From the NCBI RefSeq assembly GCF_024700885.2, contig NZ_CP117014.1: a stretch of DNA of 64,000 bases. The stretch is one strand, 5' to 3'. Position numbers and translations under genes: made by a program. The notes beneath the pieces are model-generated. The model did not search any database and was not told the origin of the DNA. It saw only the letters and a list, made by a program, of their open reading frames with translations. The DNA is from Escherichia coli. Lineage in GTDB: Bacteria > Pseudomonadota > Gammaproteobacteria > Enterobacterales > Enterobacteriaceae. Within the stretch, counting starts at the first letter, position 1. Every line of letters starts with the position of its first letter. This document shows positions 1,096 to 40,065 of this stretch, in pieces.

Positions 1096-1803
1096 TCAGA
1101 ATTTGATCACTCCACTGATAGCCCCCTTTAACGCACTTGTAGCCATGCCAGCGGCACCGTTGACCAAGGCAGAAACACCTGAGCCTGCAGATGTGTATTT
1201 CTGGAAAGTGATTGGGTATGACAAGAACTCTGACACCTGATCACGTGAGCGAGTGATTTCCCCAAGTTGTGTAGGAAATACGCGCATTTCTTCTTCCAGT
1301 TCTTTTCCGCCGTCCTGAGTTACCCGGTAGACACGGATTTTCATCAGATATTCCGGAGGAAGGTTTATTGTTCCATCAGGATTTGTTACACGAGAACGAC
1401 GCTCTTTGAACCAGTCCATGATCTTGCCATCTTCGGTATCCCTCACGGTCATAGTGACCGGTCCAGCGCTAACATAGGTTGGCTTGCTGAATTCTACGCT
1501 GCCGATCACCTTGCTTTCTGTCTCAATGTTTCCACTGCTGTAGGTGATATCCTTCACGAACATATCGAAGCCGTTCAGGCCATCCACTTCAACGGTCCAC
1601 TGCCACCCCTGGGCGTAACGGATACGCATAGCGGCAGCAACAATATTTTTCCCGTAGGCAATATCGCTACTGTAATTCCCGCTTACCCCGCCGCCTGATA
1701 TGGCTTTATCAAGAATGTCGCTAATGAGGTTGCTGGTGAATGATTTCGTGTTAAATGACAATGCGGTGGTCAACGTTCTACCAACGCTGCTGAAAATACT
1801 CAC
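1096..1803 (-). CDS. Virion morphogenesis operon protein, hypothetical (235 aa)
   Basis: GTG start preceded by GGAGG; last gene of a tightly packed minus-strand operon 8190->1096; no recognisable motif. Confidence 0.4.
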   Translation of the reverse strand: MSIFSSVGRTLTTALSFNTKSFTSNLISDILDKAISGGGVSGNYSSDIAYGKNIVAAAMRIRYAQGWQWTVEVDGLNGFDMFVKDITYSSGNIETESKVIGSVEFSKPTYVSAGPVTMTVRDTEDGKIMDWFKERRSRVTNPDGTINLPPEYLMKIRVYRVTQDGGKELEEEMRVFPTQLGEITRSRDQVSEFLSYPITFQKYTSAGSGVSALVNGAAGMATSALKGAISGVIKF

Positions 1804-1818
1804 TCTGCGCCTCCAGCG

Positions 1819-2370
1819 TTAAAAAATGGTAGCCCCCGGAATAATGGCCCGGTTTGAGGACATTTTTTCCTCAATCTCCTGCACGCGGGCATATAGCGTG
1901 GCTTCATCGGGCAGATCGGAGTAGTCAAATTTCCCGTCGATGGACGCTCTACGCTGCCGGGCGACATTTCTTACATTGATAAGCGCCTCCAGATATTCCT
2001 CCAGCATTCCAATGATTGCAGGAGGCACTTGCCATTCATCCAGCTTTCTGTCGCGTAGATTAACCAGATACAGCATTCGAAAAGGCCAGCGTTCTGAACC
2101 TGTTAGCTCTAATTCAATAAATCCGGATAATTCATCCGAATAGACCAACAGGCCATTGTTGTCGGTAACATGAACCAGAGAGAGATAATCTTCTGGTAAT
2201 GGGATTGCAGTACCACCAGCTTTTTCAAGTTTTAACGTTTTCACTACCCCTGCCCTGTCCTGATACGTGGTCAGAGCTTTGATCAGGAAGGCTTTCAGCG
2301 TTTCTTCTTCACGCACAAGCAGTGGATTAAATCGTACTTTAACGCTTTCTAATAATTCGGTTGGTGTCAT
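1819..2370 (-). CDS. Virion morphogenesis operon protein, hypothetical (183 aa)
   Basis: ORF in structural operon; short intergenic spacing. Confidence 0.4.
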   Translation of the reverse strand: MTPTELLESVKVRFNPLLVREEETLKAFLIKALTTYQDRAGVVKTLKLEKAGGTAIPLPEDYLSLVHVTDNNGLLVYSDELSGFIELELTGSERWPFRMLYLVNLRDRKLDEWQVPPAIIGMLEEYLEALINVRNVARQRRASIDGKFDYSDLPDEATLYARVQEIEEKMSSNRAIIPGATIF

Positions 2371-2422
2371 CGTACCTACAACTCAAATACAAGGAGTTCC
2401 CGCCACAAGGGCGGGAAAGAGA

Positions 2423-2914
2423 TCACTCTACCCAGTTGTAAACAATACGCAGGGAAGGCTTAACGACTGCTGTTACGTCTTCGGTGGAGAAGTCCACTGC
2501 GTCGGAATACACTTTGCAGTGATAATATGTGCGGATCAGACCTTTATGGTTACCGCTATTGGATTCAGCCGCTGCCTGTAAGGTAATTTCCAGATATTCT
2601 TTGCCATATACCATTTGTTTTACGGCGGCCAGAACATCCCCTTCGATGGTTTCAGAGCAGGTAACCTGGAATTCACCTGAGTTACGCAATGGCCCGTGCT
2701 GGTTGATCTTCATGCCGCCAGGACCATAGTCTTCCACGTCTTCGCGAGTCATTTCCGGCAACTGAGTGGTACGAACAAGTACAGATAGTTTTTCGTAACC
2801 TTTAATAGTCATCCAGAATTCTGAACCAATAAGTTTTTCGCCCGCTGCCAGGTTTTTGTTCAACCGGGATTTCAGAAAAGCGATATCGGCTTTTGTATTT
2901 GCAAAACCGGACAT
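2423..2914 (-). CDS. Virion structural protein, possibly tail tube-like (163 aa)
   Basis: Size and position downstream of a large structural protein resemble myovirus tube genes; assignment is by context only. Confidence 0.3.
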   Translation of the reverse strand: MSGFANTKADIAFLKSRLNKNLAAGEKLIGSEFWMTIKGYEKLSVLVRTTQLPEMTREDVEDYGPGGMKINQHGPLRNSGEFQVTCSETIEGDVLAAVKQMVYGKEYLEITLQAAAESNSGNHKGLIRTYYHCKVYSDAVDFSTEDVTAVVKPSLRIVYNWVE

Positions 2915-2922
2915 AAATACTC

Positions 2923-3513
2923 CTACACAAAAACAGATGATATGTTGCTACGGTTAATCGAGGTGTTTCCGCTGCATTGCAGGGTTACCGTGTTATGAGT
3001 GAAATAGCCTTCCGGTGTGCGTGGGGCGTCCAGTTGGTAACTCACGCTTTTGATAACAACGTCGGTAAGGGCTATGTTCCTACCTATGTTTAACGTTACT
3101 GTCTCCGGGCGACGACCGAATGGCGCTACATTGTTCAGTTCCGGCGATTCCATCTTCAGCAATGCTGTAATGGCTGCGTTTACTTCAAGTTGCGCGTTCG
3201 TTGTCGCCATGAAATCAATTACCAGATTAAATTCAGGCGGTTGCTGACCTTCCCAAACAAGCATTGAGTTGAAGAGGGTTTTTGTTGTTACGCCGGTTGC
3301 GGTCTGAAGCGTATCTGCAAGAGAGCCAGCCGCAGCGCTAATACCACCAAGCAAACCTCCTACTGACTGGTTTTCAAATGGTGATTGCCACATTGATGAC
3401 AGTTCTGCGGTAGATCCTTCACCGATATAACCGACGACCATATCCTCTGAAGAGAGGATATAAACCTTCATTAACGGACTTATTCCGTCAGGCATTATCG
3501 CGCCGCAAATCAA
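2923..3513 (-). CDS. Virion morphogenesis operon protein, hypothetical (196 aa)
   Basis: ORF in structural operon. Confidence 0.4.
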   Translation of the reverse strand: MICGAIMPDGISPLMKVYILSSEDMVVGYIGEGSTAELSSMWQSPFENQSVGGLLGGISAAAGSLADTLQTATGVTTKTLFNSMLVWEGQQPPEFNLVIDFMATTNAQLEVNAAITALLKMESPELNNVAPFGRRPETVTLNIGRNIALTDVVIKSVSYQLDAPRTPEGYFTHNTVTLQCSGNTSINRSNISSVFV

Positions 3514-3562
3514 ACGCTATTTCTCCCAGGTAGAGGCCACCTTTGCAGACGGCCTATGTCAC

Positions 3563-4303
3563 TTACAAACCGCGTTTTTTGCGAATGCGCATTGATTTTT
3601 TGCGGTTGATATTCGCTACGGATGTATGTGCTTTGCGGCGTGCTTTTTTCAGCGCCTGTTTTTGCAATGACGTCATGCGGCGAGGACGCGGGCGTTTACG
3701 GATGATGGTTACCTTGCCATCACGAACCACTTTTTTACGTACCGCTTCCAGCATTGCGCTATCACCACCAGCAACGGTGTAAATGGCAATAGCTGTTTCC
3801 ATCATGTCGGTGTCGCTTTCGGAAAGAGCGTCATAAACACGTTCGGCAGCTGAGTCATCTTCATCGTCGATCATTTCGGTTACATCATCCTGATCAGCGC
3901 CAAGCGCAACAGCTGCATCAGCAAGAGCTGCGAGTGCATCGTTATAAGCATCGATTTGCTCATCGGTGAAATCGGTGTCTTCATCGATATCAGCCAGGCC
4001 AGCCATAGTGATTGCTAATGCATCAAATGAGTCAGCCTCCGGATCACCATCTTCAACCCAACCAGCAAGCATGGAAGCTGCCAGGCTGCGCATATCACCT
4101 TGTGCACGGGATTCAACCGCTTCCATCATCGCGGTTTCAATGTCGTCTTTGGGCTTTGGTTGAGTGTCCTTTCCTTTCTGTCCTGCGCTTTCCAGCATGG
4201 CGTTATCATTATTGTCCTGCGTGGATTTATCACCGCTTTCAAAGCAGCCAGAACCGAAAATCGCACGCATAAAAGGATCAGCAGTATAATTTTTCATATT
4301 CAA
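3563..4303 (-). CDS. Acidic virion protein with strongly basic C-terminal tail (246 aa)
   Basis: D/E-rich central region followed by K/R-rich C-terminus (KRPRPRR...RKKRGL); composition typical of internal or DNA-associated virion proteins. Confidence 0.35.
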   Translation of the reverse strand: MNMKNYTADPFMRAIFGSGCFESGDKSTQDNNDNAMLESAGQKGKDTQPKPKDDIETAMMEAVESRAQGDMRSLAASMLAGWVEDGDPEADSFDALAITMAGLADIDEDTDFTDEQIDAYNDALAALADAAVALGADQDDVTEMIDDEDDSAAERVYDALSESDTDMMETAIAIYTVAGGDSAMLEAVRKKVVRDGKVTIIRKRPRPRRMTSLQKQALKKARRKAHTSVANINRKKSMRIRKKRGL

Positions 4304-4340
4304 ACCTCTCTCCCCCGCATCATTTAGCGGGGGTTATAAA

Positions 4341-5999
4341 TCAGCGCATCAGAATTGGCTTACCGACGATTCGGCGAGCTGTACCGGTCGGACAAACAGA
4401 CCAGGACACTTCCCACAGATCGATGTCCTTTTGGACAACCTGAACAACGTATGGATCTTCACCCTGGGACTTGTCACGTGGAGTAACCAGCGCACCGGCT
4501 GCAACGTAACGGTCAAGCAATTCAGTCATTGCTTTCATTAGCGTTTCTTTGGTAATGCCATCCGGTTCGTGCTTAATCGCCTGAGCTACTTCATAGAAAT
4601 CTCTGGCGATGGCGTTCATCAAGGAAGACACATGCTGGAATCGCAGATAGTTGTTTTTGCTGTAAGTTGTTAAAGAGTCGTCAATGTAAACGGACCCGTC
4701 AGCAGCAACTGAAACTGGATTAATGCGCGCAAGAACGAACGCTTCACGATCAACTGCACCGATATTTGGAATTCGGGCAATGTTCTGTCGATCAATAATC
4801 GCGCGTGATATACCTGCCGGTGCGTAATGCCAACCACCAACATCCGGTACCAGCGCCACTCCTTTTGCCTTCGCTACGAATGCGTCGCAGCTAATGCCAT
4901 AGACGACATTCATTCCAGTGAAAGTATCTCGGCAGGAGAGTGGGAAGTAGTAACGGCTTGGTTGATGTGAGCCGCCAAAACTATGGCTTTTCGCTTCTGA
5001 AATAGCGTTTTCAGGTGTCTGGTTGCCCTTCAGGTCATAGAACATGTCTACGCGAACATCTTCAGCCAGCTTTTTGATTGCGGCTAAGGCGGATGCGTCA
5101 TAACAACCCAATGACAGCAATGCGGTGTAATTAACCTCTGAAGCTTCGAGAACCTTTAATGCTTCCAGATAGTCTGCAGCGTTAATTTCGGACAGATTTC
5201 CATCAGTACCACCTTCAAAAGCTACATCCTCAAAAATGAGTTGAGCAGCGGATGCTTCTGCATTATCTGCCAGTACGGCACCAATGCGAGAGGACTGGCT
5301 TTCAAGCAGTGTCGGAATCCATGCTGGTTGGCCCATGTCGTTGGTGCCTTCTGGATTGAAAGACACTTGGTGGCTTTCCAGCACCTCAATGGACCCATCG
5401 GTTTGTTTTTCTTTCAGCGTCAGCGTAAAGAGTTCGCTTTCTTCATCATCGCGAGTTAGTGATAACGTACGATTTTGAGATGCATCACCATCTTTGATGA
5501 AGAATAATGCCTTCTCTCCACCTTTAATCTGGGGCGTCTCTTTGGGTGTGAAGGTCACTGATTGAGTCGTTGCAGTTGAAGCAACACCAACGCTTAATGT
5601 GTCACCTGGATTTACTGTGGTTTCAGTAGGTTCAACGGAAAGTTCTTTGCTCGCCTTTGCCGCTTTTGCTTTGCCCACAACGGAAACAGAAATACCCGGC
5701 ACCTTCATGTCTTTAGCGCAAACTCGAACGACATATCCAGAGCCGCCTTTTACTGCACGCTCCACGTGGCGATATGGTTCAAATGCCGCGCCCTGGCGAG
5801 GGTGAATCGGTGAACCTAATACGCTTTGATAAGTCGTATCGTCAACTTTCAGTACCTTACCCGGTGCGCCACGACGCGATATTACAAGCCCAGCAAAGAC
5901 GGATGCGCCACCGCTGGTATTGGTGAGGGTAGCGTCAGCATTTACTGACATTACAGCAACGCCAGCTGCCTGCCCTACCGAAAAACTAATCTTATTCAT
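4341..5999 (-). CDS. Large virion structural protein (552 aa), possibly contractile tail sheath
   Basis: Large ORF in structural operon followed by a 163-aa tube-sized gene further downstream; identity unverified. Confidence 0.35.
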   Translation of the reverse strand: MNKISFSVGQAAGVAVMSVNADATLTNTSGGASVFAGLVISRRGAPGKVLKVDDTTYQSVLGSPIHPRQGAAFEPYRHVERAVKGGSGYVVRVCAKDMKVPGISVSVVGKAKAAKASKELSVEPTETTVNPGDTLSVGVASTATTQSVTFTPKETPQIKGGEKALFFIKDGDASQNRTLSLTRDDEESELFTLTLKEKQTDGSIEVLESHQVSFNPEGTNDMGQPAWIPTLLESQSSRIGAVLADNAEASAAQLIFEDVAFEGGTDGNLSEINAADYLEALKVLEASEVNYTALLSLGCYDASALAAIKKLAEDVRVDMFYDLKGNQTPENAISEAKSHSFGGSHQPSRYYFPLSCRDTFTGMNVVYGISCDAFVAKAKGVALVPDVGGWHYAPAGISRAIIDRQNIARIPNIGAVDREAFVLARINPVSVAADGSVYIDDSLTTYSKNNYLRFQHVSSLMNAIARDFYEVAQAIKHEPDGITKETLMKAMTELLDRYVAAGALVTPRDKSQGEDPYVVQVVQKDIDLWEVSWSVCPTGTARRIVGKPILMR

Positions 6000-9898: not shown

Positions 9899-10705
9899 CT
9901 ATTGTTCCTTTTTGGTGTTCTTTTGGAGCGCATCGATAACGCCTTGTGGCATGATTAAACTGATTGCCGGACTCATTACTGCATCATCCAGTAGAGAACC
10001 AGTTAACGTGATGGCGACAGCGTTTTCTAAACCTTTGGTTGCCTGAGTGGTTGACGTTTTAATGCGACCTGTAAGGGCTACGACACTCTCACTTGCTGAG
10101 TTAATTTCGGAGAGTAAAACTTCGGCGGCTGTCACTGCTTCCCGTAAAGCATCAATTTCATCCTGAGTAATGACTGGAGCCTGAGCGCCCCCAGTACCAC
10201 CCTGTCCACCATTGCTATCACCACCACCAGCACTTCCGGCAGCTTCTATTTTTGCGTTAATGGCGTTCATGGCGGTTTTCAGAGCATCAAGTTTTAGCGC
10301 CGTCAATGCGTCCGTTAGAGATTGCGGAATGGAAACATTCCCCATCCCCTCAACAAGGGCGAAAGCAGGTATGGGGGTCAGCTCGTTACCTTTTACGTAG
10401 CATTCCCAGCCAATCTTCATCTGTAACAGCTCTGATGGCTTGGTGTATGGGGAAAGAGAATCAGCCAGTAATGAAGACGCTTTGCTGGCCTCATTTAGCT
10501 GTTCAGAAAAGCCAAGCAATTGAGTAGTCCAGGCCGAAACAGAATCAGGATAGGTTTTATCGGCGTGAACTATTCCCTGTATGGCGCTGGCGAGTGATGA
10601 GGCTTTTACAGACGCTGCCCGGCTTATGGTTATAGATTCTGGTGTAGAGATACCGGCATCTGACAGAATTTTGAAGGCTTTAACTTCACCTATTGAATCA
10701 AGCAT
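9899..10705 (-). CDS. Hypothetical tail-associated protein (268 aa; start MLDSIGEV overlapping PAAR stop as TAATG)
   Basis: Translational coupling to upstream PAAR-like gene; Ala/Ser/Gly-rich. Confidence 0.35.
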   Translation of the reverse strand: MLDSIGEVKAFKILSDAGISTPESITISRAASVKASSLASAIQGIVHADKTYPDSVSAWTTQLLGFSEQLNEASKASSLLADSLSPYTKPSELLQMKIGWECYVKGNELTPIPAFALVEGMGNVSIPQSLTDALTALKLDALKTAMNAINAKIEAAGSAGGGDSNGGQGGTGGAQAPVITQDEIDALREAVTAAEVLLSEINSASESVVALTGRIKTSTTQATKGLENAVAITLTGSLLDDAVMSPAISLIMPQGVIDALQKNTKKEQ

Positions 10706-10989
10706 TATGCAACCTGAAAAATATCCTCGCCGTTGGCGATAACAGAACCACAAGAAAGCGGATCGCCTACACAGACAACTCCCTTTCCACCTATCGAAAA
10801 CCATACTCGCGTCGATACAGCTGCCCCTGGATGTGCACTGTTACCGTCAGTGTGACTGGGAAACATGGCACCATCTACAACAATTGGCTTACCGTTAACG
10901 GTGAACCAGGGAACAGTTTCAGCTACCAGTCGCGGCGGAAATCCTCCGTGACCAGAACAAAGGGTGTCGCTGGTGGCTATTGCGCTCAT
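10705..10989 (-). CDS. PAAR-like spike tip protein
   Basis: 94 aa with HGG and GDPLSCG-type motifs characteristic of PAAR repeat proteins. Confidence 0.5.
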   Translation of the reverse strand: MSAIATSDTLCSGHGGFPPRLVAETVPWFTVNGKPIVVDGAMFPSHTDGNSAHPGAAVSTRVWFSIGGKGVVCVGDPLSCGSVIANGEDIFQVA

Positions 10990-11069
10990 TCTTCACCTCC
11001 TGGTTATCCTCCTATTGTCATCACTTTGTTATTTCGTCATTCAAACTGAGAGTAAAATTTCGGAATATT

Positions 11070-11231
11070 TTTGTATTCTCAATTCATCCTCAAATAAATC
11101 TCACTGTCAGACCATCATTCATTGGGTGATTAAGATATTCTCAAAATGAACTCAATAATCACTCTTTATTATCTCTTTTGGTGTGGATTTTTGGGTGCTT
11201 CTCTTTTAAAATTGCATTTTGATTCTCAAAT
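11070..11231. repeat. parC-like centromere: ~5 copies of (A/T)TTCTCAA(A/T) upstream of parM
   Basis: Repeats read at ~11075, 11087, 11136, 11150, 11221; located directly upstream of the ParM gene as in type II partition loci. Confidence 0.45.
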
Positions 11232-11255
11232 GTGTCTCAGAAGTGGAGCAAGAAG

Positions 11256-12212
11256 ATGCGCATTTTTATCGATGATGGTTCAACCAATATCAAAATGCTG
11301 TGGGAGCACGACGGGGAAACTCGCACTCACATCAGCCCTAACAGCTTTAAGCGCGGATGGTCAGCAACATTTTGTGCTGGCAAGCCGTTTAACTATGTCA
11401 TTGACGACGAAAAGTATTCGTATGATTTGATCTCGCCAGATGTTCTGCCGACGAATAACGTGGAATGGCAATACAGCCCGCTTAACGTCCTGGCTGTTCA
11501 CCATGCCCTGCTGACAAGTGGCATTGAGCCGCAGGAAGTAGAAATTGTGGTCACGCTGCCTCTGGCGGAGTTTTACGACGACGACGCGCAATACAATCTC
11601 GATAACATCGAGCGCAAGAAAGCCAGCCTTATGCGCCCCGTCACGCTGAATAAAGGCAATGTGTTCACGATTAAGAAAGTTACGGTACGACCGGAGTCTA
11701 TTCCGGCAGGAATTGGCCTGTGCGACAATCTGAACCCTGCCCATTCTATTCTTATCGTCGATTTGGGTGGAACTACCCTTGATGTTTCAATGGTCGCCGG
11801 GCAAATGACGGCAGTTTCCCGTGTTTTTGGCGATTCGAATCTTGGCGTCTCTCTGGTTACCAGGGAAGTAAGGCAAGCGCTTGCCAGAGCCAATACCGAA
11901 ACGTCAAATTACAATGTTGATCAGCTCATTATTAACCGCCACGATGAAGATTATCTGAATGACAATATCAATGACCCATCAGCGATTGGTGATGTGAAAA
12001 AGGCCATTGCCGCAAGCATTGACCGTCTGCGTACCCGCGTTCTTGATGTGATTGGCGACTTTAAAGGATATACGCATGTCATGGTGATCGGTGGTGGCGC
12101 ACCGCTGGTGGCAGATGCAATTCGCGAGCAAGTTAATATTCGTGATGACCGTTTCTTCGTGGCGGATGACCCGCAACTTGCTCTTGTTCATGGCCTGAAA
12201 GCAATCGGTTAA
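11256..12212 (+). CDS. parM: ParM actin-like plasmid segregation ATPase
   Basis: IFIDDGSTNIK phosphate-1 motif and full-length similarity to R1 ParM/StbA; ATG at 11256 with RBS (track ORF starts at upstream GTG 11232). Confidence 0.85.
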   Translation: MRIFIDDGSTNIKMLWEHDGETRTHISPNSFKRGWSATFCAGKPFNYVIDDEKYSYDLISPDVLPTNNVEWQYSPLNVLAVHHALLTSGIEPQEVEIVVTLPLAEFYDDDAQYNLDNIERKKASLMRPVTLNKGNVFTIKKVTVRPESIPAGIGLCDNLNPAHSILIVDLGGTTLDVSMVAGQMTAVSRVFGDSNLGVSLVTREVRQALARANTETSNYNVDQLIINRHDEDYLNDNINDPSAIGDVKKAIAASIDRLRTRVLDVIGDFKGYTHVMVIGGGAPLVADAIREQVNIRDDRFFVADDPQLALVHGLKAIG

Positions 12213-12218
12213 CGAGGT

Positions 12219-12563
12219 ATGTCCATGTCTCAGGAACGTAAGAAAGTGATGATTTATCTTCGCCCAGAGGCTTATGCCAATGAAAAGGCGGCGAGCGAGA
12301 AGATAAAAAAACATAGCGATATGGCAAGAACTGCATTGTTGGCAGGGCTTGCGCTGGGAGAAGTCGATAGCAGGCTTCCAGGATTACTGGCTTCCCTGCT
12401 GACCGAAGACAATAACCCGGAGCTGATCCGAAAAATGCTGGCATCCTTCCTGGAACTACCAGCTGCGGTTGAGGAGCGCCCTGCCTCCATTGAGCCAGTG
12501 AAGGAGCAAGTTGTTGCCAAAAGCGCGTCGGCGCGCAATCTGGCTGACTCTCTACCTGATTGA
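12219..12563 (+). CDS. parR: ParR-like centromere-binding adaptor
   Basis: 114-aa ORF 7 nt downstream of parM; size and position typical of ParR. Confidence 0.6.
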   Translation: MSMSQERKKVMIYLRPEAYANEKAASEKIKKHSDMARTALLAGLALGEVDSRLPGLLASLLTEDNNPELIRKMLASFLELPAAVEERPASIEPVKEQVVAKSASARNLADSLPD

Positions 12564-12583
12564 CAGAAGATGTGCTGGTTTAA

Positions 12584-12606
12584 GGCTGCAAATTGCAGCC
12601 TTTTTT
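12584..12606 (+). terminator. Rho-independent terminator after parR
   Basis: GGCTGCA-aat-TGCAGCC hairpin followed by TTTTTT. Confidence 0.6.
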
Positions 12607-12607
12607 G

Positions 12608-12730
12608 TGCCTTAATGGTGTCTAATTAGTGTTGAACTGGCACCAGTTAGGTGCTGTTATGGTGCAATTTTGTATCTGGTTCCAATTTAGGGCTGATTTC
12701 GTGTTAAATAGGATGCAATATAAGGTGTAT
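12608..12730. repeat. Centromere-like boxes (GGTGCAATT / GGTTCCAATT / GGATGCAAT) upstream of the ParA-like gene
   Basis: Related 9-11 bp boxes at ~12616, 12637, 12660, 12677, 12710; a similar set recurs downstream at 13790-13885. Confidence 0.4.
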
Positions 12731-12850
12731 TTGGTCTGATTGATGTTATACTTTGCCAAACATTCATGACTCCATTATAGAGCCTGTCCCGCATCAAAAA
12801 GGCTCTTATCTGGAACCGTTTTGATACCAAAATCACACCGAGGAACGGAT

Positions 12851-13492
12851 ATGATTATATTGGTAGTCAGCCAAAAAGGTGGCTGTGGAAAATCAACCAC
12901 AAGCGTAAACATCTGTGCGGAGCTTGCCCGCGCAAATAAGGATGTAGTGTTACTAGATGCAGACAAGCAAGGAACAGCTGCCCGCTGGGCAGCTGACCGT
13001 AACACGGCAGAGGTTTCTCCTGTAATTCATTGTGTCCAGAAGTTTGGTAATATTCGAGAAACACTTCTCGATCTGGATAAGCGTTATGAATTTGTTGTTG
13101 TTGATACAGCCGGGCGCGATAGCAAAGAGATGCGTACAGGCATAACCGCTGCAGATATTGTGTTGGTCCCATTCAGACCATCTCAACCAGATTTAGACAC
13201 GCTGGCACACTTTGTTGAAGTGTTTGAAGAGGCTTTGGACCTGATGCCTAATCCTAGCATTAAGGCGTTCGCAGTCTTAACAATGGCCCCATCCAATCCG
13301 GTTGTGAATGAAACCAATGAGGCCAAAGAGTACCTGGCTGAATATCCGCAACTGAAGTTGCTGAAAACCATCATTCGTGATCGTAAGGTTTACCGCGATT
13401 GCATGGCTGAAGGGAAGGGCGTTGTTGAGATGGACAACGGGAAAGCTAAAGGTGAAATCCAGATGTTGGTTAAGGAGTTATTAAGTGATTAA
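12851..13492 (+). CDS. ParA/Soj-family partition ATPase (small type Ib)
   Basis: Deviant Walker A KGGCGKST near N-terminus; ATG at 12851 with GAGGAA RBS. Confidence 0.8.
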   Translation: MIILVVSQKGGCGKSTTSVNICAELARANKDVVLLDADKQGTAARWAADRNTAEVSPVIHCVQKFGNIRETLLDLDKRYEFVVVDTAGRDSKEMRTGITAADIVLVPFRPSQPDLDTLAHFVEVFEEALDLMPNPSIKAFAVLTMAPSNPVVNETNEAKEYLAEYPQLKLLKTIIRDRKVYRDCMAEGKGVVEMDNGKAKGEIQMLVKELLSD

Positions 13493-13772
13493 GCCTCGTA
13501 AATCGGTAAAAGCCCCCGAAGTAAAAGACCCCGATCTTGAACGCCGAATTGAGGATTTTGCAAGTAAGGCTGATTTGGTGCCGGGTGAGCAACCAGAAGA
13601 CAACAAAGTGCTCGATAAGGACGCTCCACGTGATTTTAAATCTATTCGTGTTGGTTTCAATGAATACGAGTACCAGGTACTTGATGCGTTGAGCAAAAAG
13701 CATAATCGCAGCAAATTGAATATGATCCGCCATGCTATCCTCATGTTAGCGGAGTCTGAGGAAGCAAAATAA
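13485..13772 (+). CDS. ParG-like small centromere-binding protein (putative RHH)
   Basis: 95-aa basic protein overlapping the ParA stop; arrangement typical of ParF/ParG-type loci. Confidence 0.5.
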   Translation: MIKPRKSVKAPEVKDPDLERRIEDFASKADLVPGEQPEDNKVLDKDAPRDFKSIRVGFNEYEYQVLDALSKKHNRSKLNMIRHAILMLAESEEAK

Positions 13773-13789
13773 AGTCTTTCAGGTTGGTT

Positions 13790-13885
13790 TTAGAACTTAA
13801 AAAGTCTTGAACCAAAGGTGCACCAATACACCACTAATTTGGTGCACCTTTACATCCTTTTTGGTTCCAATTGTGTACCATTTGT
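13790..13885. repeat. Second set of centromere-like boxes downstream of ParG-like gene
   Basis: GGTGCACCAAT, TTGGTGCACC, GGTTCCAATT, GTGTACCATT at ~13818-13883. Confidence 0.4.
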
Positions 13886-14040
13886 CATTAATTTACTTAT
13901 GCGCAAAAGTGGGCTTCATGAAAAAGCTCATTATTGAAATAACGATAGAAAGTAATTTCTAATCAACTAGTGGTTGTCAGCCTATTCGGCTTATAAGATC
14001 ATACGCTGTTATACGTTGTTTACGCTTTGAGGAATCCACA

Positions 14041-15702
14041 ATGAGTGAGGCAGAAGCCCGCCCGACTAACTTTATTCGTCAGATCATCGATGAAGATCTG
14101 GCCAGTGGTAAGCACACCACAGTACATACCCGTTTCCCGCCGGAACCGAATGGCTATCTGCATATTGGTCATGCGAAATCTATCTGCCTGAACTTCGGGA
14201 TCGCCCAGGACTATAAAGGCCAGTGCAACCTGCGTTTCGACGACACTAACCCGGTAAAAGAAGATATCGAGTACGTCGAGTCGATTAAAAACGACGTTGA
14301 ATGGTTAGGTTTTCACTGGTCTGGCAACATCCGTTACTCCTCCGATTATTTTGACAAACTCCATGCCTATGCTGTTGAACTGATCAACAAAGGCCTGGCG
14401 TATGTTGACGAACTGACGCCGGAACAGATCCGCGAATACCGCGGCACCCTGACGCAGCCGGGTAAAAACAGCCCGTACCGCGACCGCAGCGTTGAAGAGA
14501 ACCTGGCGCTGTTCGAAAAAATGCGTGCCGGTGGTTTTGAAGAAGGTAAAGCCTGCCTGCGTGCGAAAATCGACATGGCTTCGCCGTTTATCGTGATGCG
14601 CGACCCGGTGCTGTACCGCATTAAGTTTGCTGAACATCACCAGACTGGCAACAAGTGGTGCATCTACCCGATGTACGACTTCACCCACTGCATCAGCGAT
14701 GCGCTGGAAGGTATTACGCACTCTCTGTGTACGCTTGAGTTCCAGGACAACCGTCGTCTGTATGACTGGGTACTGGACAACATCACCATTCCTGTTCACC
14801 CGCGCCAGTACGAATTTTCGCGCCTGAATCTGGAATACACTGTGATGTCCAAGCGTAAGCTGAACCTGCTGGTGACCGACAAGCACGTTGAAGGCTGGGA
14901 TGACCCGCGTATGCCGACCATTTCCGGTCTGCGTCGTCGTGGTTACACTGCGGCTTCTATTCGTGAGTTCTGCAAACGCATCGGCGTGACCAAGCAGGAC
15001 AACACCATTGAGATGGCGTCGCTGGAATCCTGCATCCGTGAAGATCTCAACGAAAATGCGCCGCGCGCAATGGCGGTTATCGATCCGGTGAAACTGGTTA
15101 TCGAAAACTACCAGGGCGAAGGCGAAATGGTCACCATGCCGAACCATCCAAACAAACCGGAAATGGGTAGCCGTCAGGTGCCGTTTAGCGGTGAGATTTG
15201 GATCGACCGCGCCGATTTCCGCGAAGAAGCTAACAAGCAGTACAAACGTCTGGTGCTGGGTAAAGAAGTGCGTCTGCGTAATGCTTACGTCATTAAGGCT
15301 GAACGCGTGGAGAAAGATGCCGAAGGCAATATCACCACCATCTTCTGTACTTATGACGCCGACACCTTAAGCAAAGATCCGGCAGATGGTCGTAAAGTGA
15401 AAGGCGTTATTCACTGGGTGAGCGCGGCACATGCGCTGCCGGTTGAAATCCGCCTGTACGATCGTCTGTTCAGCGTGCCGAACCCAGGTGCTGCGGATGA
15501 TTTCCTGTCGGTGATTAACCCGGAATCGCTGGTGATCAAACAGGGTTTTGCTGAACCGTCGCTGAAAGAAGCGGTAGCGGGTAAAGCATTCCAGTTTGAG
15601 CGTGAAGGTTATTTCTGCCTCGACAGCCGCCATTCTACGGCGGAAAAACCGGTATTTAACCGCACCGTTGGGCTGCGTGATACCTGGGCGAAGTTAGGTT
15701 AA
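14041..15702 (+). CDS. glnS: Glutaminyl-tRNA synthetase
   Basis: 553-aa class I aaRS with HIGH (LHIGHAKS) and KMSKS-like (VMSKR) motifs; essentially indistinguishable by eye from enterobacterial GlnRS; own terminator. Confidence 0.95.
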
Positions 15703-15726: not shown

Positions 15727-15753
15727 TAAACGCCGCTACTGCGGCGTTTTTTA
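15727..15753 (+). terminator. Rho-independent terminator after glnS
   Basis: AAACGCCGC-tact-GCGGCGTTT hairpin followed by T-tract. Confidence 0.65.
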
Positions 15754-17979
15754 CTTCATTATTGCAATTATATCGTTAGCAACTACACGTGTTGACGCCT
15801 TGCAGGACACCGACCGTCTGGCTGCCATATGATGTACTTTAAACCCGTTTCGTTCATATAGTTCACGGATGTTTGGCGCACCACTATTTGTTATCACTAC
15901 CTTAGCGCCGCGCTGGTGGGCTTCCACCAATAGAGATACCAGCCGTTTCTGTTCGTCGAAACGGAAGCTATTTCCTGAATAACTGGTAAACCCTTCTGTA
16001 TCCGGCAGCGGTTCATACGGCGGATCGCAAAAAATCACATCGCCTTCACCAGCCGCCTCGATGACGCCAGCAAAGTCACCTGATACAAAGGACGTGTTTT
16101 TGAGTACGTCATCAGCCAAAAATGCCTCCATCTCTGCATGTGGGAAGTAGGGCGCTTTGTATTTGCCATACCCCACGTTGAACTCGCCATTTTGGTTGTA
16201 CCGCGTTACGCCATTAAAACAGTGCCGATTAAGGTACAAAAAGGCGGCAGCATGATGTAGCTGGTCATACTTTCCTCTGTTAAATGCCTCGCGCACTTCG
16301 AGGTAAGCGTCAGCGTTGTTGTAATTTTTGAAAAAACTATATGCCAGCGTGACGAGCGAATGTCCCTCTCGCTGCAATGTCTGATAGAAGTTAATCAGGT
16401 CACCGTTAATATCATTAAGCAGGTTGTGGCGAAATCCTGCATTCGTAAATACGGAACCGCCACCAACGAATGGTTCTATTAACCGCTTGCCGTGTGGTAG
16501 ATGCTCAAGCACTGTAGGCAACTCTGAGAATTTACCGCCTACCCATTTGAATATTGGGCGTTCATATTCATCCGGAGTCCGGAGTTTTCTTGTGTAGGTA
16601 ATGGTATTTATTGTTTTTTGCTGTTTATCCGCTACGGTCGCAAGAATGCGACACCCTATCCATTGCATAACAGGAACTGCCATGCTGTTGCCGATCGCTT
16701 TGTAACGCGGTCCGTCAGCTGCAAGCATCGCGGCCTCTTCTTCGCTTAAATCTGGATAGTGATTGCGAAGGTATGCCAGTTCATCTGAAGAAACTTTTTT
16801 ACGCTTTTCCGTAGGGATCAACGTGTGCCCGTCAGGAAAGCCCTGCAGGCGTTCGCACTCGACAGGCGTTAAGCGACGTACTGCCACTCCGACGTTCGCA
16901 CTGTCAAAAACAGCCAGGTCGGTTGCATCCTTAAAATCTCTGGCCTTGACCGTGGAAGCCGCCTCATCATCCGCATACTCACCAAATGCTACCATCCGGT
17001 AAGCACCGACAAGCCCACTTCCGCGCTGTGAAAAAATCTCCTGGTTGCTTGCACCCGTCCCGCCGGTATTGTGCGATCGGGCAAGTGTCGGGTGAGGATT
17101 TACAGGGTTATCCCAATGGCTCCCGCTTTTAATGCCATTTCCAACATTTCCGGCAACTTCCTTCCCCTCGCCTCTGCTCGGCGCAATATCCCGGCGCACG
17201 CCTTCGAACTCAAAAAGTACCGTTGCGGGATCGAGGTCTGTTCGAGCACTTGCGACAACAAACACGCGTCGGCGTCGTTGTGCCACTCCGAAGTATTGGG
17301 CATCAAGTATTCTCCAGGCCACCTTTCGCTGCGGTCCATAAATACAACCACACTGCGGCCACTTTGGAGCATGGCAACCGGTTTTGCCATCCCACCGCCA
17401 GAACGCGTTACTTTTTCCTGATTCAGGTCGATCACCTGGTTCAAATGGTGCATCTTCTCCAGCCAATCCGGCAAGGAAACATCCGAAGGCGTTATCTGCC
17501 GATGACAGGACTCCTGGGACATTTTCCCAGACGATAACTGTCGGTTTGAGGAAGGACTCAGACCGTTTGTCGTCAATTGCATTTGCAAGCTCCACATACT
17601 TCAAAGTTAGCGCGCCGCGCTCATCATCAAGCCCACCACGTAATCCCGCGATACTGAATGCCTGACAAGGTGTTCCCCCGACGAGCACATCAGGGGATTC
17701 GATTTCCCCAGCCAGGACTTTTTTGGCAAGTTTTGTCATATCGCCAAGGTTGGCGATATGAGGCCAGCGGTGCGCAAGAACGGCAGATGGAAAAGGCTCA
17801 ATTTCAGCAAACCACGCCGGACGCATACCCAACGGTTCCCAGGCAATGCTCGCGGCTTCAATTCCACTGCAAACTGAACCATATCGAAGGTTAACGTTCT
17901 GCTTCACCGCCAATGGCCTCCACCAGCGCGTTAAACAGTGCAGATAATTCGCCCGTAAAGAGCACGAAATCAGCATCAA
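15751..17979 (-). CDS. dmt: Bifunctional DNA methyltransferase: N-terminal C5-cytosine (Dcm-type) plus C-terminal N6-adenine (Dam-type), P1 Dmt-like
   Basis: Motifs [22 protein letters not shown] in N-terminal half; DPPY and Dam-like region in C-terminal half; start uncertain, ORF overlaps rdgC 3' end by ~88 nt. Confidence 0.8.
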
Positions 17980-22087: not shown

Positions 22088-22190
22088 TGTCTGGAGATTG
22101 TGATTTCAATTCATATCCCAGCATGGGACTAAAGTGCTTTACATTGTCCCATATTGGAACTACTATACTTTCAGTGAGAAGGAATCTGTG

Positions 22191-22493
22191 ATGAAAATAA
22201 TTTCGGTAAAAACACTAAGGGATTTTTGGGCGAAGAATCCCGATGCAGAACAGCCTTTAAAGGCATGGGTTGATGAAGCAACAAAGGCTGACTGGAAAAA
22301 TCCGGCTGAGATCAAAGAACAGTACCGGACAGCCAGCATCCTTAAAAACAGGCGCGTGGTGTTCAATATTAAGGGAAATGATTACAGGTTAATTGTCGCA
22401 ATTGCTTATCAGCGAGGATGGATGTTCGTTAAGTTTATTGGAACACACAAGGAATACGATGCCATTGACGCGGATACAATAGAACTGGAGTAA
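22191..22493 (+). CDS. higB: HigB-family type II toxin (RelE/ParE fold)
   Basis: 100 aa with conserved ...FNIKGNDYRLI...FIGTHKEYD pattern; toxin-first gene order. Confidence 0.75.
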   Translation: MKIISVKTLRDFWAKNPDAEQPLKAWVDEATKADWKNPAEIKEQYRTASILKNRRVVFNIKGNDYRLIVAIAYQRGWMFVKFIGTHKEYDAIDADTIELE

Positions 22494-22496
22494 ATC

Positions 22497-22856
22497 ATGA
22501 ACATTAAACCTATCCGTACAGAACAAGATTATGAGGCCGCACTGCGTGCGGTCGAACCGATGTTCGATAACGAACCGGAAATGAACACCCCGGAAGGTGA
22601 TTTCTTTGAGGTCATGTGTCTTCTCATTGAGGAGTACGAGAAAAAACATTACCCAATTGAGCCACCATCACCTATTGAAGCCATTAAATTCCGCATGGAA
22701 CAGCAAGGGCTGACCGTGAAGGATCTGGAACCGGCAATTGGTAAGTCAAACCGTGTTTACGAAGTGCTTAATGGGACACGAAATTTGACGTTACCTATGA
22801 TTCGTCGTTTACATGCCCAGTTTGGTATTCCACTGGAAAGTCTGGTTGGTGTTTAA
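22497..22856 (+). CDS. higA: HigA-family antitoxin (XRE-type HTH)
   Basis: 119 aa, starts 4 nt after higB stop; C-terminal HTH-like segment (GLTVKDLEPAIGKSNRVYEVLNG). Confidence 0.75.
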   Translation: MNIKPIRTEQDYEAALRAVEPMFDNEPEMNTPEGDFFEVMCLLIEEYEKKHYPIEPPSPIEAIKFRMEQQGLTVKDLEPAIGKSNRVYEVLNGTRNLTLPMIRRLHAQFGIPLESLVGV

Positions 22857-22916
22857 GTTTTGCGGTCTGGATGACCGCTTTTACATAAAATCAATGTTTA
22901 AATATTTGGTAATTAT

Positions 22917-23648
22917 ATGAGCGCTGATTCATCAATAGAAAAGGAAAACCCCTCTACCAAAAATCTGTTAGAAGACGCTGTAAAAGATAAGTTGTTTAAT
23001 AAGGTTTTTGCCTATATTTTTATTTCATTTTTAATTTCTAACTGGCAAGAAATATTGATTTTGTTTAAATCAAAATATGATATATACACAACACTATCTA
23101 TAGTATGGATTGGTGACAAATATCAAGTCCCTTATTTGGGAACCTTCATTGTACCTCCGTTTTTAGCTCACTTTGTTATGCCGTTTATATATGGCACTGT
23201 TGCGTCCATAGTAATGCCTTATATTACTATGCGTATATCAAAACTAACTGGTAGAAATTATGCGCAAATAAGACATATTGACCGTGAATTTGACTCAAAA
23301 GAGCAAGCAAGATTAGATGAGTTACAGAAAGAAATAGAACAAAAAAAAGATGAGCGTTTAAGTCTAGAAAAGAAAATAGAAGATCAACGTAAATCATTGG
23401 CTAAAATTGAAGGTGAAAAGAAAGAAGTTGAGGACGCTAGAATATCCCTGTTTTATGGGATAAAGGCAATAGTTGATATATATGAAACCAAAGGCGAAAG
23501 CATTTCCACCCAAGAGGATTTTGCTGATTTACTAAAGGCAGTCGAACAAACTGATTTTTATAAAGATACAGGTTTATACGGTATTAATAAATTGGTAGAT
23601 GATGTAAAAAGAATATACGAACATCAATCTATCTTAAATGATAAGTAA
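22917..23648 (+). CDS. Membrane protein with 2-3 N-terminal transmembrane helices and a long charged coiled coil (243 aa)
   Basis: Strongly AT-rich gene; hydrophobic segments (FAYIFISFLISNWQEILILF; FIVPPFLAHFVMPFIYGTVASIVMPYITM) then E/K-rich heptads. Confidence 0.5.
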   Translation: MSADSSIEKENPSTKNLLEDAVKDKLFNKVFAYIFISFLISNWQEILILFKSKYDIYTTLSIVWIGDKYQVPYLGTFIVPPFLAHFVMPFIYGTVASIVMPYITMRISKLTGRNYAQIRHIDREFDSKEQARLDELQKEIEQKKDERLSLEKKIEDQRKSLAKIEGEKKEVEDARISLFYGIKAIVDIYETKGESISTQEDFADLLKAVEQTDFYKDTGLYGINKLVDDVKRIYEHQSILNDK

Positions 23649-23677
23649 TAACATAGGCGGGATAACCGCCTATGTTA
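23648..23677. terminator. Bidirectional hairpin between convergent genes
   Basis: TAACATAGGCGG-gataa-CCGCCTATGTTA inverted repeat. Confidence 0.45.
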
Positions 23678-23681
23678 TCAA

Positions 23682-24878
23682 TCAAGAACCTTTCTTCACA
23701 TACTCCATGAACATTTTTTCAGCCTGCTCAGGTGACGTTCCTGCCATGACAAGCGCATCAATGAACGCCTGCTTCTTCAGTGCGAACTGATCGGCAAGGC
23801 GTTGCTGAAGCTCCTTGTTTTTCTGTTTCTCACGTTGCAAGGCCGCTTCTTTTGCTGCCGCCCGTTTTTTCTGTGCGTCTGACAACTTTCTGGCTTTGGT
23901 CAATTGGTCACGTAGCTTGTCAATTTTGCCGTTGTCCTTTGCCAGTTTTGTGCTTAAAGCGGCCTGGCGCTTCTGATAGAGCCTCCATTCGCGCTTGGCA
24001 GCGTCAACGTTTGTTTTACTGTTGCGATTGCGATTAAACTCCCTCTCGTCTTCTTTTGAGAAGTGTTTGGTTGTACGGCGGCGATCGTCACCAAATGCAA
24101 TTTGCGTTGCGGCCTTTTGTAACGCACGAGCAATACTCATTTGCCAACTGGCGGACTGTAACCGCGTCATTGAGTGGATCACGTGTTTACAGGCGACGCC
24201 TTGTAGCTTAGGGTTACGAACTTTTGGATAGGCGTATTCTTTTGGCGGGGCCAGGGCAAAGTTACCTGCAGTAGCGATGTAACGATACCAGTATTGATGA
24301 CGACCACAGTCACAATCGAAAGACACCCGCCCAGCGCACAGTGATTTAGTGATTTTCAGAGCTGATTTATCGTCTTCTGCGATGTCATCGACCATCTGAT
24401 CCCATTCTTCAAAGCGTATCCGGACGATATGGTGCTGGTGGACGGATATATCCGATGCTTCTACGCGGATATTAATCACGTTGTGGCGAAGAGATACGGG
24501 TGTAGCTCTTTTGATACCAGATCCGTCATCCACGGCGTTATTTGCACGCTTAATATCGATTGCCTGGCTGGATGCCACCAGCTGGGCGTATGTGATGCCA
24601 GCCGTCTTGCTGTCATATTTTTCGCGTGTTTTACTCCGTAGCTTTTCGAAACCTTTCAGGTCGTCTCGCGTGAAGAACGTGCCGCCTTTTTTCTTCCCTA
24701 ACTTGAGAATATCTTCGGCGGATTTGTTCCTCAGTCTACCTGGCGTCAGCGTCCGGTGAGCTTGTCGGCGCTTACGGGTTTGTTCTTTCCTGATAAGGTC
24801 GAATAAACGCGTGAAGTCCTTAGAGGACAGGCCGTCAGTGATATAGCGCCCGTCCTGGTTTTTCAGGAAATCAGGCAT
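23682..24878 (-). CDS. SWIM-type zinc-finger protein with basic N-terminus and K/R/Q-rich coiled-coil C-terminus (398 aa)
   Basis: CDCGRHQYW...(25)...CKHVIH matches a CxC-Xn-CxH SWIM finger. Confidence 0.45.
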   Translation of the reverse strand: MPDFLKNQDGRYITDGLSSKDFTRLFDLIRKEQTRKRRQAHRTLTPGRLRNKSAEDILKLGKKKGGTFFTRDDLKGFEKLRSKTREKYDSKTAGITYAQLVASSQAIDIKRANNAVDDGSGIKRATPVSLRHNVINIRVEASDISVHQHHIVRIRFEEWDQMVDDIAEDDKSALKITKSLCAGRVSFDCDCGRHQYWYRYIATAGNFALAPPKEYAYPKVRNPKLQGVACKHVIHSMTRLQSASWQMSIARALQKAATQIAFGDDRRRTTKHFSKEDEREFNRNRNSKTNVDAAKREWRLYQKRQAALSTKLAKDNGKIDKLRDQLTKARKLSDAQKKRAAAKEAALQREKQKNKELQQRLADQFALKKQAFIDALVMAGTSPEQAEKMFMEYVKKGS

Positions 24879-27467: not shown

Positions 27468-27489
27468 ACTGTGTTAGCACTTTGAACAT

Positions 27490-27535
27490 GGCGACAACAC
27501 ATCTTGGTGGCTGCGTTGTCGCTGTATGTTTTTAT
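27490..27535 (+). terminator. Rho-independent terminator
   Basis: GCGACAAC...GTTGTCGC stem followed by TGTATGTTTTTAT. Confidence 0.5.
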
Positions 27536-27555
27536 AATATAAAGCATTAAAGTTT

Positions 27556-28185
27556 TCATTTTTGTCGGATCTTTTCCAGCATATTTAATTCATTATCACT
27601 TTCTGCTGCTGAGACGGTTGGCCTCACATTTCCGAAATATTTCCTGTGAGACTCATGACTTATGTATTCACCGACAGTTTCATTCTTGAATATACGAATT
27701 TGACATATGCGAGATCCAACAATAAGTTCTACAGGGCTATTCCCATGATTAAATAACTCTAAAGATATACAGCCTCTGTACCCTGGTTGTATCATGGTAT
27801 TTAATGAAAGACCAAGCCTTGTATAGCTGCTTCTGGACAATACATCAGCGTAGCAATCTGGTGGCAAACAAACATATTCTAATGTTGTTGCCAGTACCAC
27901 TTGATTCGGGTAAACAATGAACCTATCCCCAAGATCTCTCCTTGTTTCCTGGAAAAATGTTCTGATTGGTTGATGAGTATCATTGTTTTTTGAGGGAATT
28001 AACTCTATTGACGGCTTCCTTGTCATAATAGACACTAAAAAATCGTAACCAAGTCTAAGGTCTATGGTGAAGTTTCCAATTTGGTTTTTATTTAGAAGAG
28101 GTTCAATGAACAACGACTCAGGTTCTTCTGATTCATAATATTGCAGCAATTCAGCTTTGCTTAGGAGATTCATTGTGCACTCCAT
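27556..28185 (-). CDS. dCTP deaminase (Dcd/dUTPase-fold) homolog
   Basis: 209 aa collinear with E. coli Dcd: IDLRLG, LATTLEYVCLP, RSSYTRLGL, GYRGCISLELFNHG; putative catalytic Ser/Arg/Glu conserved. Confidence 0.7.
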   Translation of the reverse strand: MECTMNLLSKAELLQYYESEEPESLFIEPLLNKNQIGNFTIDLRLGYDFLVSIMTRKPSIELIPSKNNDTHQPIRTFFQETRRDLGDRFIVYPNQVVLATTLEYVCLPPDCYADVLSRSSYTRLGLSLNTMIQPGYRGCISLELFNHGNSPVELIVGSRICQIRIFKNETVGEYISHESHRKYFGNVRPTVSAAESDNELNMLEKIRQK

Positions 28186-40064: not shown

Positions 40065-40065
40065 G

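Follow-up and report, generated by a model that had tools for sequence, protein, structure and literature searches.

The question raised by this locus is whether the element carries two different partition systems side by side and, if so, whether each is provided with a centromere of its own. The locus lies at 11070-13885 of a 64,000-nucleotide (nt) stretch of Escherichia coli contig NZ_CP117014.1 (assembly GCF_024700885.2), hereafter the window, which belongs to a D6-like (P1-related) phage-plasmid, and comprises parM, parR, a small parA and an open reading frame (ORF) of 95 amino acids (aa), all four on the + strand. It is very probably a tandem double partition locus, in which two independent, co-directional cassettes each possess their own centromere and operator. 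An earlier note on this DNA had claimed two different systems next to each other, each with candidate centromere repeats. Domain and structure matches bear out the first part, as a type II ParM/ParR cassette is followed by a type Ib cassette of ParA and a small DNA-binding partner, while the phased arrays found where such centromeres lie are consistent with the second; the block as it was then drawn, from 11070, correctly takes in the parC repeats.

The first cassette encodes an actin-like segregation ATPase, ParM (StbA), which matches the Pfam domain StbA_N (3e-66) and the ParM C-terminal domain (4.6e-55), falls into PHROG 691 ('partition protein', 2e-74) and aligns over its full length with the R1 ParM structures (E ~1e-108, 54% identity over 314 residues). 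The gene directly behind it encodes ParR (StbB), the predicted centromere-binding adaptor of ParM, with matches to Pfam Plasmid_stab_B (7e-11) and PHROG 8671 ('partition protein', 9e-60); residues 3-74 align with the N-terminal ribbon-helix-helix (RHH) part of the pB171 ParR/StbB structure 2jd3 (E 1.6e-6, 32% identity). An actin-fold nucleoside triphosphatase (NTPase), a small ParR of the N-terminal RHH kind whose gene immediately follows parM, and phased iterons upstream around the promoter were all found, by which the cassette can be assigned to type II on its sequence.

The region upstream of parM contains seven clear and two degenerate 11-bp units with the core TCTCA, which lie on both sides of the promoter and together form a candidate parC (Table 1). 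The heptamer TTCTCAA, previously taken as the repeat, does occur there in three copies (11076, 11138 and 11223, all on the + strand), but its frequency across the window is at chance level (10 found against 11.8 expected, three of the ten inside 150 bp), and the true units are the 11-bp TCTCA-core iterons, whose CTCA cores are exactly 11 bp apart (11078/11089/11100, 11140/11151 and 11225/11236). Within 11070-11250, 11 bp is the top period (z = 4.3), a value reached by 0 of 500 dinucleotide-preserving shuffles. When the parC intergenic region of the window is aligned with those of D6 and two diverged relatives, conservation is concentrated in islands formed by the TCTCA cores, the GTGGATT block and the TAAAAT -10 hexamer. 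Among the related loci compared, which carry L numbers here, L007 contains exactly one extra 11-bp unit (TCTCAAATGTG), and L015, the ParR of which is 58% identical, has GTCTCT-type cores at unchanged spacing. The intrinsic terminator behind parR is nearly invariant across five diverged loci, with a single loop-base change in L015, and it splits the parMR and parA operons into what are, as read from the sequence, separate transcription units.

The second cassette begins with a small Walker-type ParA lacking an N-terminal DNA-binding domain, and its KGGCGKS motif is the sole deviant Walker A in the whole window. The best NCBIfam model by far is ParA_partition (8.5e-48), the other matches being PHROG 164 ('ParA-like partition protein') and Pfam CbiA, VirC1 and AAA_31, and the protein aligns over its full length with ParF of TP228 (4dzz, 206 aa; 1e-18, 29% identity). 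The 95-aa ORF, a homologue of D6 orf61, overlaps the end of parA and is predicted to be translationally coupled to it. Its product consists of a basic N-terminal tail (MIKPRK), a helix (residues 16-29) and a C-terminal RHH (about residues 47-94); a tail and a C-terminal RHH in a protein encoded directly downstream of parA are the features of a type Ib partner, and the protein is thus a candidate centromere-binding protein. Its earlier description as ParG-like holds for this architecture only, and the protein is not a member of the ParG family, as Pfam ParG is matched by 0 of 96 aligned relatives. Tandem Repeats Finder also detects a 15-bp unit (GTAAAAGACCCCGAA), present in 1.9 copies, at 13506-13534 inside this ORF, a duplication encoding VKAPE/VKDPD in the flexible N-terminal tail, which is the most length-variable part among the relatives.

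The 95-aa protein itself has no NCBIfam or PDB sequence match and no Pfam match even at E <= 10, while its family, PHROG 9169, is listed as of unknown function and weak Arc-like matches are confined to the C-terminal half. A word-indexed protein search returned close relatives only; the wider family came from an exhaustive profile search, by which at least 243 clusters were recovered at 50% identity, with a length of 70-100 aa in nearly every case. In an alignment of 96 sequences, M1, R5, F25, N59, E62, L66 and R82 are conserved in at least 90%, and the Pfam matches within the family are to NikA-like, RHH_1 and DUF6290, all of them RHH families. A profile search of PDB sequences with the family gave sub-threshold matches throughout; the four best and most of the others are RHH proteins, and these align in register. 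The AlphaFold model built from the deep alignment has a mean predicted local distance difference test (pLDDT) score of 86, rising to 95-98 over residues 50-90. By tblastn, the protein is encoded in 175 plasmids, and in every locus examined its homologue directly follows the gene for a small ParA-type ATPase. Three plasmids, Rahnella pRAHAQ02, Aeromonas salmonicida pAsa5 and Acinetobacter pACICU1, carry the pair in divergent orientation beside the replication initiator and have no parMR nearby.

The type Ib operon is flanked by boxes with the cores GGTGC/GGTTC and, in reverse, GNACC, located at 12606-12743 and 12811-12843 upstream and at 13806-13882 downstream; repeats upstream of the operon with a second array downstream are the arrangement of a type Ib site, to which the present boxes are provisionally assigned. 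The GGTNCAATT-type boxes of the earlier note stand as phased boxes on both flanks, but the literal GGTNCAATT is too loose a description, having one exact match (12661). The literal GGTNCAATT and the strict hexamer RGYRCY were replaced by periodicity tests and a looser 5-mer class. With these, 11 bp emerges as the strongest period on either flank (z = 3.6-4.4 for the upstream and 4.2 for the downstream flank; 0 of 500 shuffles), while two coding-region controls show no 11-bp periodicity. The sequence GGTTCCAATT occurs exactly once per flank (12678 and 13863) and nowhere else in the 64 kb (0.19 expected), and no other 150-bp window of the 64 kb is as rich in GGTNC|GNACC as the downstream flank (7 against 0.82 +/- 0.96). 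The three reverse-oriented boxes between promoter and ribosome-binding site (RBS) have the cores GAACC (12813), ATACC (12824) and ACACC (12835), and equivalent boxes adjoin the RBS in L006, L012, L014 and L015. The downstream array contains a perfect 13-bp inverted repeat (13814-13826 / 13839-13851) made of two GGTGCACC palindromes.

The strongest support for the candidate type Ib arrays is provided by other genera, since GGTACC/GGTGC/GCACC boxes are also found in the flanks of homologous operons from E. coli variants, Serratia, Rahnella, Arsenophonus, Aeromonas and Spongiibacter, and 30 of the 54 adjacent GYRC spacings in this cross-genus tally are multiples of 11, against about 9% by chance. 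An upstream periodicity of 11 or 22 bp is significant in L006, L007, L012 and L014. In the Acinetobacter homologue, HTI replaces IRV in the predicted recognition beta-strand, and the boxes are AACTAAT, also at 11 bp. L006 and L015 keep the downstream boxes, lack the palindrome and its hairpin and possess a separate terminator, which argues that the boxes, and not the hairpin, are the conserved feature.

The promoter of the parA operon is probably the extended -10 element TGTTATACT, as the TGTTATACT/TGTTATAC element is the most conserved block in the intergenic alignment of five diverged loci; it was missed by a consensus promoter scan, which needs a -35 hexamer. An alternative promoter, TTGCCA-17-TATAGA (about 12753-12781), is not kept in L006 or L007, and the invariant TGTTATAC is preferred. 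The leader between this probable promoter and the RBS contains an imperfect inverted repeat (ATCAAAAAGGCTC / GAACCGTTTTGAT, 12793-12825), which overlaps the first reverse-oriented box, and the leader RNA folds modestly better than shuffles (z = -2.4).

Table 1. Features of the double partition locus in window coordinates (bp, base pairs; RBS, ribosome-binding site).
Feature	Position	Strand	Details
parC-like centromere/operator (candidate)	11075-11243	+	11-bp iterons on both sides of the promoter
parC iterons, first cluster	11075-11107	+	ATTCTCAATTC ATCCTCAAATA AATCTCACTGT
parC iterons, second cluster	11137-11158	+	ATTCTCAAAAT GAACTCAATAA; then two degenerate units, 11159-11180
parMR promoter	11183-11189; 11207-11212	+	conserved GTGGATT; -10 TAAAAT
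parC iterons, third cluster	11222-11243	+	ATTCTCAAATG TGTCTCAGAAG
parM (stbA), actin-like segregation ATPase, 318 aa	11256-12212	+	ATG at 11256; RBS GGAG, 11245-11248
parR (stbB), predicted centromere-binding adaptor of ParM, 112 aa	12225-12563	+	start 12 nt past the parM stop
Intrinsic terminator closing the parMR operon	12582-12602	+	AAGGCTGCAAATTGCAGCCTT then TTTTTT; terminator scan
Upstream array, six 11-bp units in perfect phase	12606-12671	+	TGTGCCTTAAT GGTGTCTAATT AGTGTTGAACT GGCACCAGTTA GGTGCTGTTAT GGTGCAATTTT
Upstream array after a 6-bp shift, about six further units	12678-12743	+	GGTTCCAATTT and following units
Probable extended -10 element of the parA operon	12744-12752	+	TGTTATACT
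Three reverse-oriented boxes, 11 bp apart, between promoter and RBS	12811-12843	+	TGGAACCGTTT TGATACCAAAA TCACACCGAGG
Small Walker-type ParA (type Ib), 213 aa	12851-13492	+	deviant Walker A KGGCGKS, residues 9-15; no N-terminal DNA-binding domain
95-aa ORF (D6 orf61 homologue), candidate centromere-binding protein	13485-13772	+	GTG start; 8-nt overlap with the parA end; RBS AAGGAG, 13473-13478
Downstream array, seven units	13806-13882	+	CTTGAACCAAA GGTGCACCAAT ACACCACTAAT TTGGTGCACCT TTACATCCTTT TTGGTTCCAAT TGTGTACCATT

A working scheme for the two cassettes can be drawn by analogy with the R1, pB171, TP228 and pESBL families, from which protein-DNA binding, filament and gradient mechanics, autoregulation and a contribution of both cassettes to stability are taken over. 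ParR dimers would bind the 11-bp TCTCA iterons flanking the parMR promoter and thereby repress the operon, while the ParR-iteron complex would capture the ends of ParM-ATP filaments, so that filament growth between two such complexes would push sister plasmids apart. In the type Ib cassette, dimers of the 95-aa RHH protein would sit on the GGTGC/GGTTC-type boxes, one helical turn (11 bp) apart and thus on one face of the helix; the boxes over the parA promoter and RBS would serve autoregulation, and a second array would be available downstream of the operon. The basic N-terminal tail of this protein, in which R5 is nearly invariant, may stimulate the ATPase of nucleoid-bound ParA, by which plasmid copies would be spaced along the nucleoid.

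Several observations weigh against the tandem double locus. ParA reaches 162.6 bits under ParA_partition, which is below the curated cut-off of 180, and PDB sequence searches with the 95-aa protein gave no significant match to any characterised centromere-binding protein. The beta-strand is unformed in the monomer model of this protein, as is expected for an obligate dimer, and the Foldseek E-values of the model are weak (0.2-1, with ParG (1p94) as the fourth match) because the domain has only about 45 residues. Degeneracy is marked in the boxes of the window, none of the arrays was detected by Tandem Repeats Finder, and RGYRCY, the strict hexamer seen across genera, shows no enrichment in the flanks, with 2 copies upstream and none downstream where the mean per 150 bp is 0.53. 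Across the window, box pairs at +11 are no commoner than at other spacings, and the case for the boxes thus rests on local periodicity and conservation. Upstream periodicity is not significant in L009, L010 and L011, and the suggested co-variation of beta-strand and box sequence is a single contrast, between Acinetobacter and all others. The downstream palindrome could, as RNA, form a hairpin (-24.8 kcal/mol, z = -4.8) and be a mere terminator; Rfam has nothing relevant over it, the one match being a chance microRNA match (E 0.14). A literature search, made without the D6 genome paper, returned no experimental work on D6-type par loci.

All four ORFs are intact and full length when compared with solved homologues, and the frameshift that had been named as a possible flaw of one of the loci was not found. 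The ratio of nonsynonymous to synonymous substitution rates (dN/dS) of the par genes is 0.02-0.26 wherever the synonymous rate (dS) is unsaturated (three diverged relatives), with 0.02-0.05 for parM and 0.03-0.05 for parA, and all four genes are, by these estimates, under purifying selection. L008 (NZ_MK356557, pSa1423-90k) was left out of the comparisons. Its region 1200-4800 contains frameshifts throughout parM, parR, parA and the small ORF, with only tiny annotated coding sequences (CDSs), which suggests a long-read assembly left uncorrected and not genuine decay.

The histories of the two modules differ among relatives. Compared with L007, parM and parR have a dS of ~0.1, while parA has a dS of 1.2 and the small protein is 77% identical; compared with L015, parM has a dS of 2.3 and ParR is 58% identical, while parA has a dS of 0.36 and the small protein is 95% identical; and in NZ_CP066033 ParR is 100% identical and the small protein just 75% identical. 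These contrasts indicate that the two par modules recombine independently among relatives, which fits the frequent exchange of partition genes between plasmids and phage-plasmids (PMC10879196). At least one module has thus been swapped by recombination, and each module is found without the other elsewhere, parMR in a plasmid of Proteus and the pair of parA and small protein in plasmids of Serratia, Rahnella, Aeromonas and Acinetobacter, as would be expected if one cassette partitions and the other is a redundant passenger, either silent, acting as a regulator only, or serving as an incompatibility determinant against competing plasmids. Such a passenger is unlikely, since strong purifying selection acts on both NTPases and on both DNA-binding proteins in each comparison with a measurable dS, the order of the four genes is constant in all diverged D6-like variants examined, including those with replaced alleles, and both sets of arrays are conserved. 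In a passage of a survey of partition systems, multiple systems on Enterobacteriaceae virulence plasmids are moreover said to 'possibly enhance plasmid stability' (PMC13245405).

It might also be supposed that the small ParA and its partner do not act in partition at all and constitute an ATPase with an RHH regulator, such as a VirC1-like transfer accessory, a factor positioning some phage process or a transcriptional switch. The ParA score under its cut-off, VirC1 as the next-best model (NCBIfam 6.7e-14, Pfam 4e-12), the match of the partner's relatives to NikA-like and TraY RHH families used in relaxosomes and the 'unknown function' label of PHROG 9169 would agree with this. However, the best structural relative of ParA is a partition ATPase, ParF, matched over the full length; the element is non-mobilizable and has no relaxase; in the three unrelated plasmids pRAHAQ02, pAsa5 and pACICU1 the pair occupies the usual par position beside the initiator; the phased boxes on both sides of the operon resemble type Ib loci such as pESBL; and PADLOC defence models gave no convincing match (best 1.6e-4, to the P-loop only). 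A role outside partition is, on balance, highly improbable. Equally little credence is given to the view that the repeats are not centromeres and reflect AT-rich promoter or curved-DNA composition, with the downstream palindrome as the operon terminator, for although TTCTCAA is at chance frequency, the boxes are short, degenerate and invisible to Tandem Repeats Finder and the 13-bp palindrome would give a stable RNA hairpin, the 11-bp period is the top one in all three regions and lacking in coding controls, the islands conserved in diverged relatives are the iteron cores with one relative differing by exactly one 11-bp unit, most homologous operons of other genera carry like boxes at multiples of 11 bp, and L006 and L015 have downstream boxes next to a separate terminator.

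The tandem double locus, which is thus preferred, stands in an element whose assignment to the D6-like phage-plasmids is based on its P1-like virion neighbours and on its identity with two known elements, as the 3-kb block 11000-14040 shares 99.9% identity with E. coli plasmid pB2C_96 (NZ_CP035876) and 97.9% with Escherichia phage D6, the latter a member of the 'P1g2' group (PMC10879196). A megablast search with this block matched 131 PLSDB records, which with few exceptions are plasmids of Escherichia, Salmonella and Shigella that are about 90 kb in size and non-mobilizable, and at least 80% of the block is present in about 119 plasmids. Position 1 of the window is the first base of the RepB-family initiator gene of pB2C_96 (repA, 1-861), and the window is collinear with this plasmid by megablast apart from three variable stretches. 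These stretches (22107-23690, 27470-29885 and 39602-44631) have little or no match to pB2C_96 beyond short matches of 90-94% identity and are variable cargo regions, the counterparts of which in pB2C_96 contain toxin-antitoxin and other accessory genes.

P1, a related phage-plasmid, fulfils the same biological role with the type Ia system ParA/ParB/parS, and the earlier note was right in finding no P1-type parA/parB in the window. The repA gene is followed by tail-tube and head-morphogenesis genes and not by parAB, no second Walker-A ParA occurs in any frame of the window, no large ParA or helix-turn-helix ParB was found in the window or in pB2C_96, and no further par gene is annotated across the 96 kb of the latter. 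An ORF of 345 aa (50424-51461, +) was considered as a ParB since it contains a GERR motif (51039) resembling ParB box II, and was rejected, as it matches only PHROG 1678, a family of unknown function. The further suggestion that one system had been replaced by another is at odds with the tandem pair being kept across about 119 D6-like plasmids and already partly annotated in D6.

The double par locus is located about 10 kb from repA, with a PAAR-domain gene on one side and glnS on the other. The PAAR-domain gene (10705-10989, -), a homologue of P1 upfC, is divergent from parM, and the 266-bp region between the two contains the entire parC array; ParR binding to parC might also influence the neighbouring virion operon. 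On the other side, glnS (14041-15702, +) encodes a full-length glutaminyl-tRNA synthetase of 553 aa directly 3' of the downstream box array. This gene is present in D6, pB2C_96 and L007 and is missing from the diverged D6-like loci L006 and L015, in which a methyltransferase gene adjoins the par locus, and is thus an accessory insertion at the par junction. It is followed by a single ORF of 742 aa (15751-17979, -), in which an N-terminal part resembling cytosine methylases is joined to a Dam-type adenine methylase; the same region is annotated as two genes in phage D6 (orf64 and orf63) and as one CDS of 2076 bp in pB2C_96.

Among characterised systems, the type II cassette is closest in kind to ParMRC of R1 (IncFII), as ParM is 54% identical over the full length and ParR shares the segment R-x-A-L-x-A-G-L-A-L. 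The parC of R1 possesses 5 + 5 iterons around the promoter, while the present one has 3 + 2 (+2 degenerate) upstream of the promoter and 2 downstream. The R1-type locus of pChi7122-2, which was read directly, likewise contains 11-bp iterons upstream of parM on both sides of the promoter; the core in the R1 type is ACCCA instead of TCTCA, and the ParR specificity should therefore differ. The host also differs, being a phage-plasmid here and a conjugative IncF plasmid in the case of R1. The double par locus of pB171 (par1, ParM/ParR; par2, ParA/ParB; Ebersbach and Gerdes 2001) similarly brings together, on one replicon, a type II system and a type Ib system with an RHH protein. In pB171, par1 and par2 are divergent and share the parC1 region, with regulatory cross-talk. 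In contrast to that layout, both operons of the present locus are on the + strand, are separated by a terminator, have their own arrays with different cores and share no centromere. The type Ib locus of pB171 has arrays upstream and downstream of the operon (PMC7602700), as found here, and such dual arrays are also known at the type Ib operons of pSM19035 and pESBL (PMC7602700).

The type Ib cassette resembles ParF/ParG/parH of TP228 in its ParA, related over the full length to ParF, and in its partner, which likewise has an RHH at the C-terminus behind a flexible N-terminal tail. Described, in a passage of PMC3130281, as arrays of short degenerate boxes with AT-rich spacers, parH is similarly organised to the present boxes (PMC3130281). 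The present cassette differs from that of TP228 in that ParG homology is not detectable in the partner, the boxes are of 5-6 bp at an 11-bp period and not tetramers, and a second array is found downstream. For ParAB-parS of pESBL (IncI1), the features shared with the present locus have been demonstrated by electrophoretic mobility shift and stability assays (PMC7602700); the pESBL repeat is the octamer GATAACAA (PMC7602700), unlike the GGTGC/GGTTC-type boxes here.

The co-occurrence of both par systems in D6-like elements is already on record. The GenBank labels of the four D6 genes are 'StbA type plasmid stability protein', 'StbB type', 'possible ParA partitioning function' and 'hypothetical protein', and the partition functions of a D6-like Salmonella plasmid have been given as 'parA, stbB and parM' (PMC6799933), while the database records examined contain no annotation of the fourth gene or of the centromeres. 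The combination of type II with type I RHH systems is likewise known from pB171 and other plasmids, and a passage of the 2026 survey counts 971 PLSDB accessions (PMC13245405). The locus is thus an uncharacterised example of a documented type II and type Ib combination and leaves the current picture of plasmid partition unchanged. Its additions are modest, namely a probable role for the 'hypothetical' fourth gene, explicit maps of the candidate centromeres and indications of independent module exchange.

A wider proposal, which we put forward tentatively and at somewhat less than an even chance, is that the 95-aa protein represents a widespread, unnamed family of type Ib centromere-binding proteins and, separately, that D6-like elements keep two tandem par cassettes while swapping each of them independently. 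If so, the site of this family would be a conserved GGTACC/GGTGC-type box at a spacing of one helical turn, from Enterobacterales to Aeromonas and Spongiibacter, and the swapping of cassettes would change the partition specificity of these elements and permit escape from incompatibility with co-resident plasmids without their ever being left without a working segregation system. D6-like phage-plasmids occur widely in E. coli and Salmonella, the block being present in about 120-130 PLSDB records, and they co-reside with resistance plasmids such as IncC (PMC6799933). Knowledge of their segregation systems and centromere positions would help to predict stability and partition-based incompatibility and could guide curing or engineering, the predicted binding sites of both cassettes being now open to experiment. 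A likely role is also given to a 'hypothetical protein' which stands beside small ParAs on many gammaproteobacterial plasmids, including pAsa5 of Aeromonas and pACICU1 of Acinetobacter.

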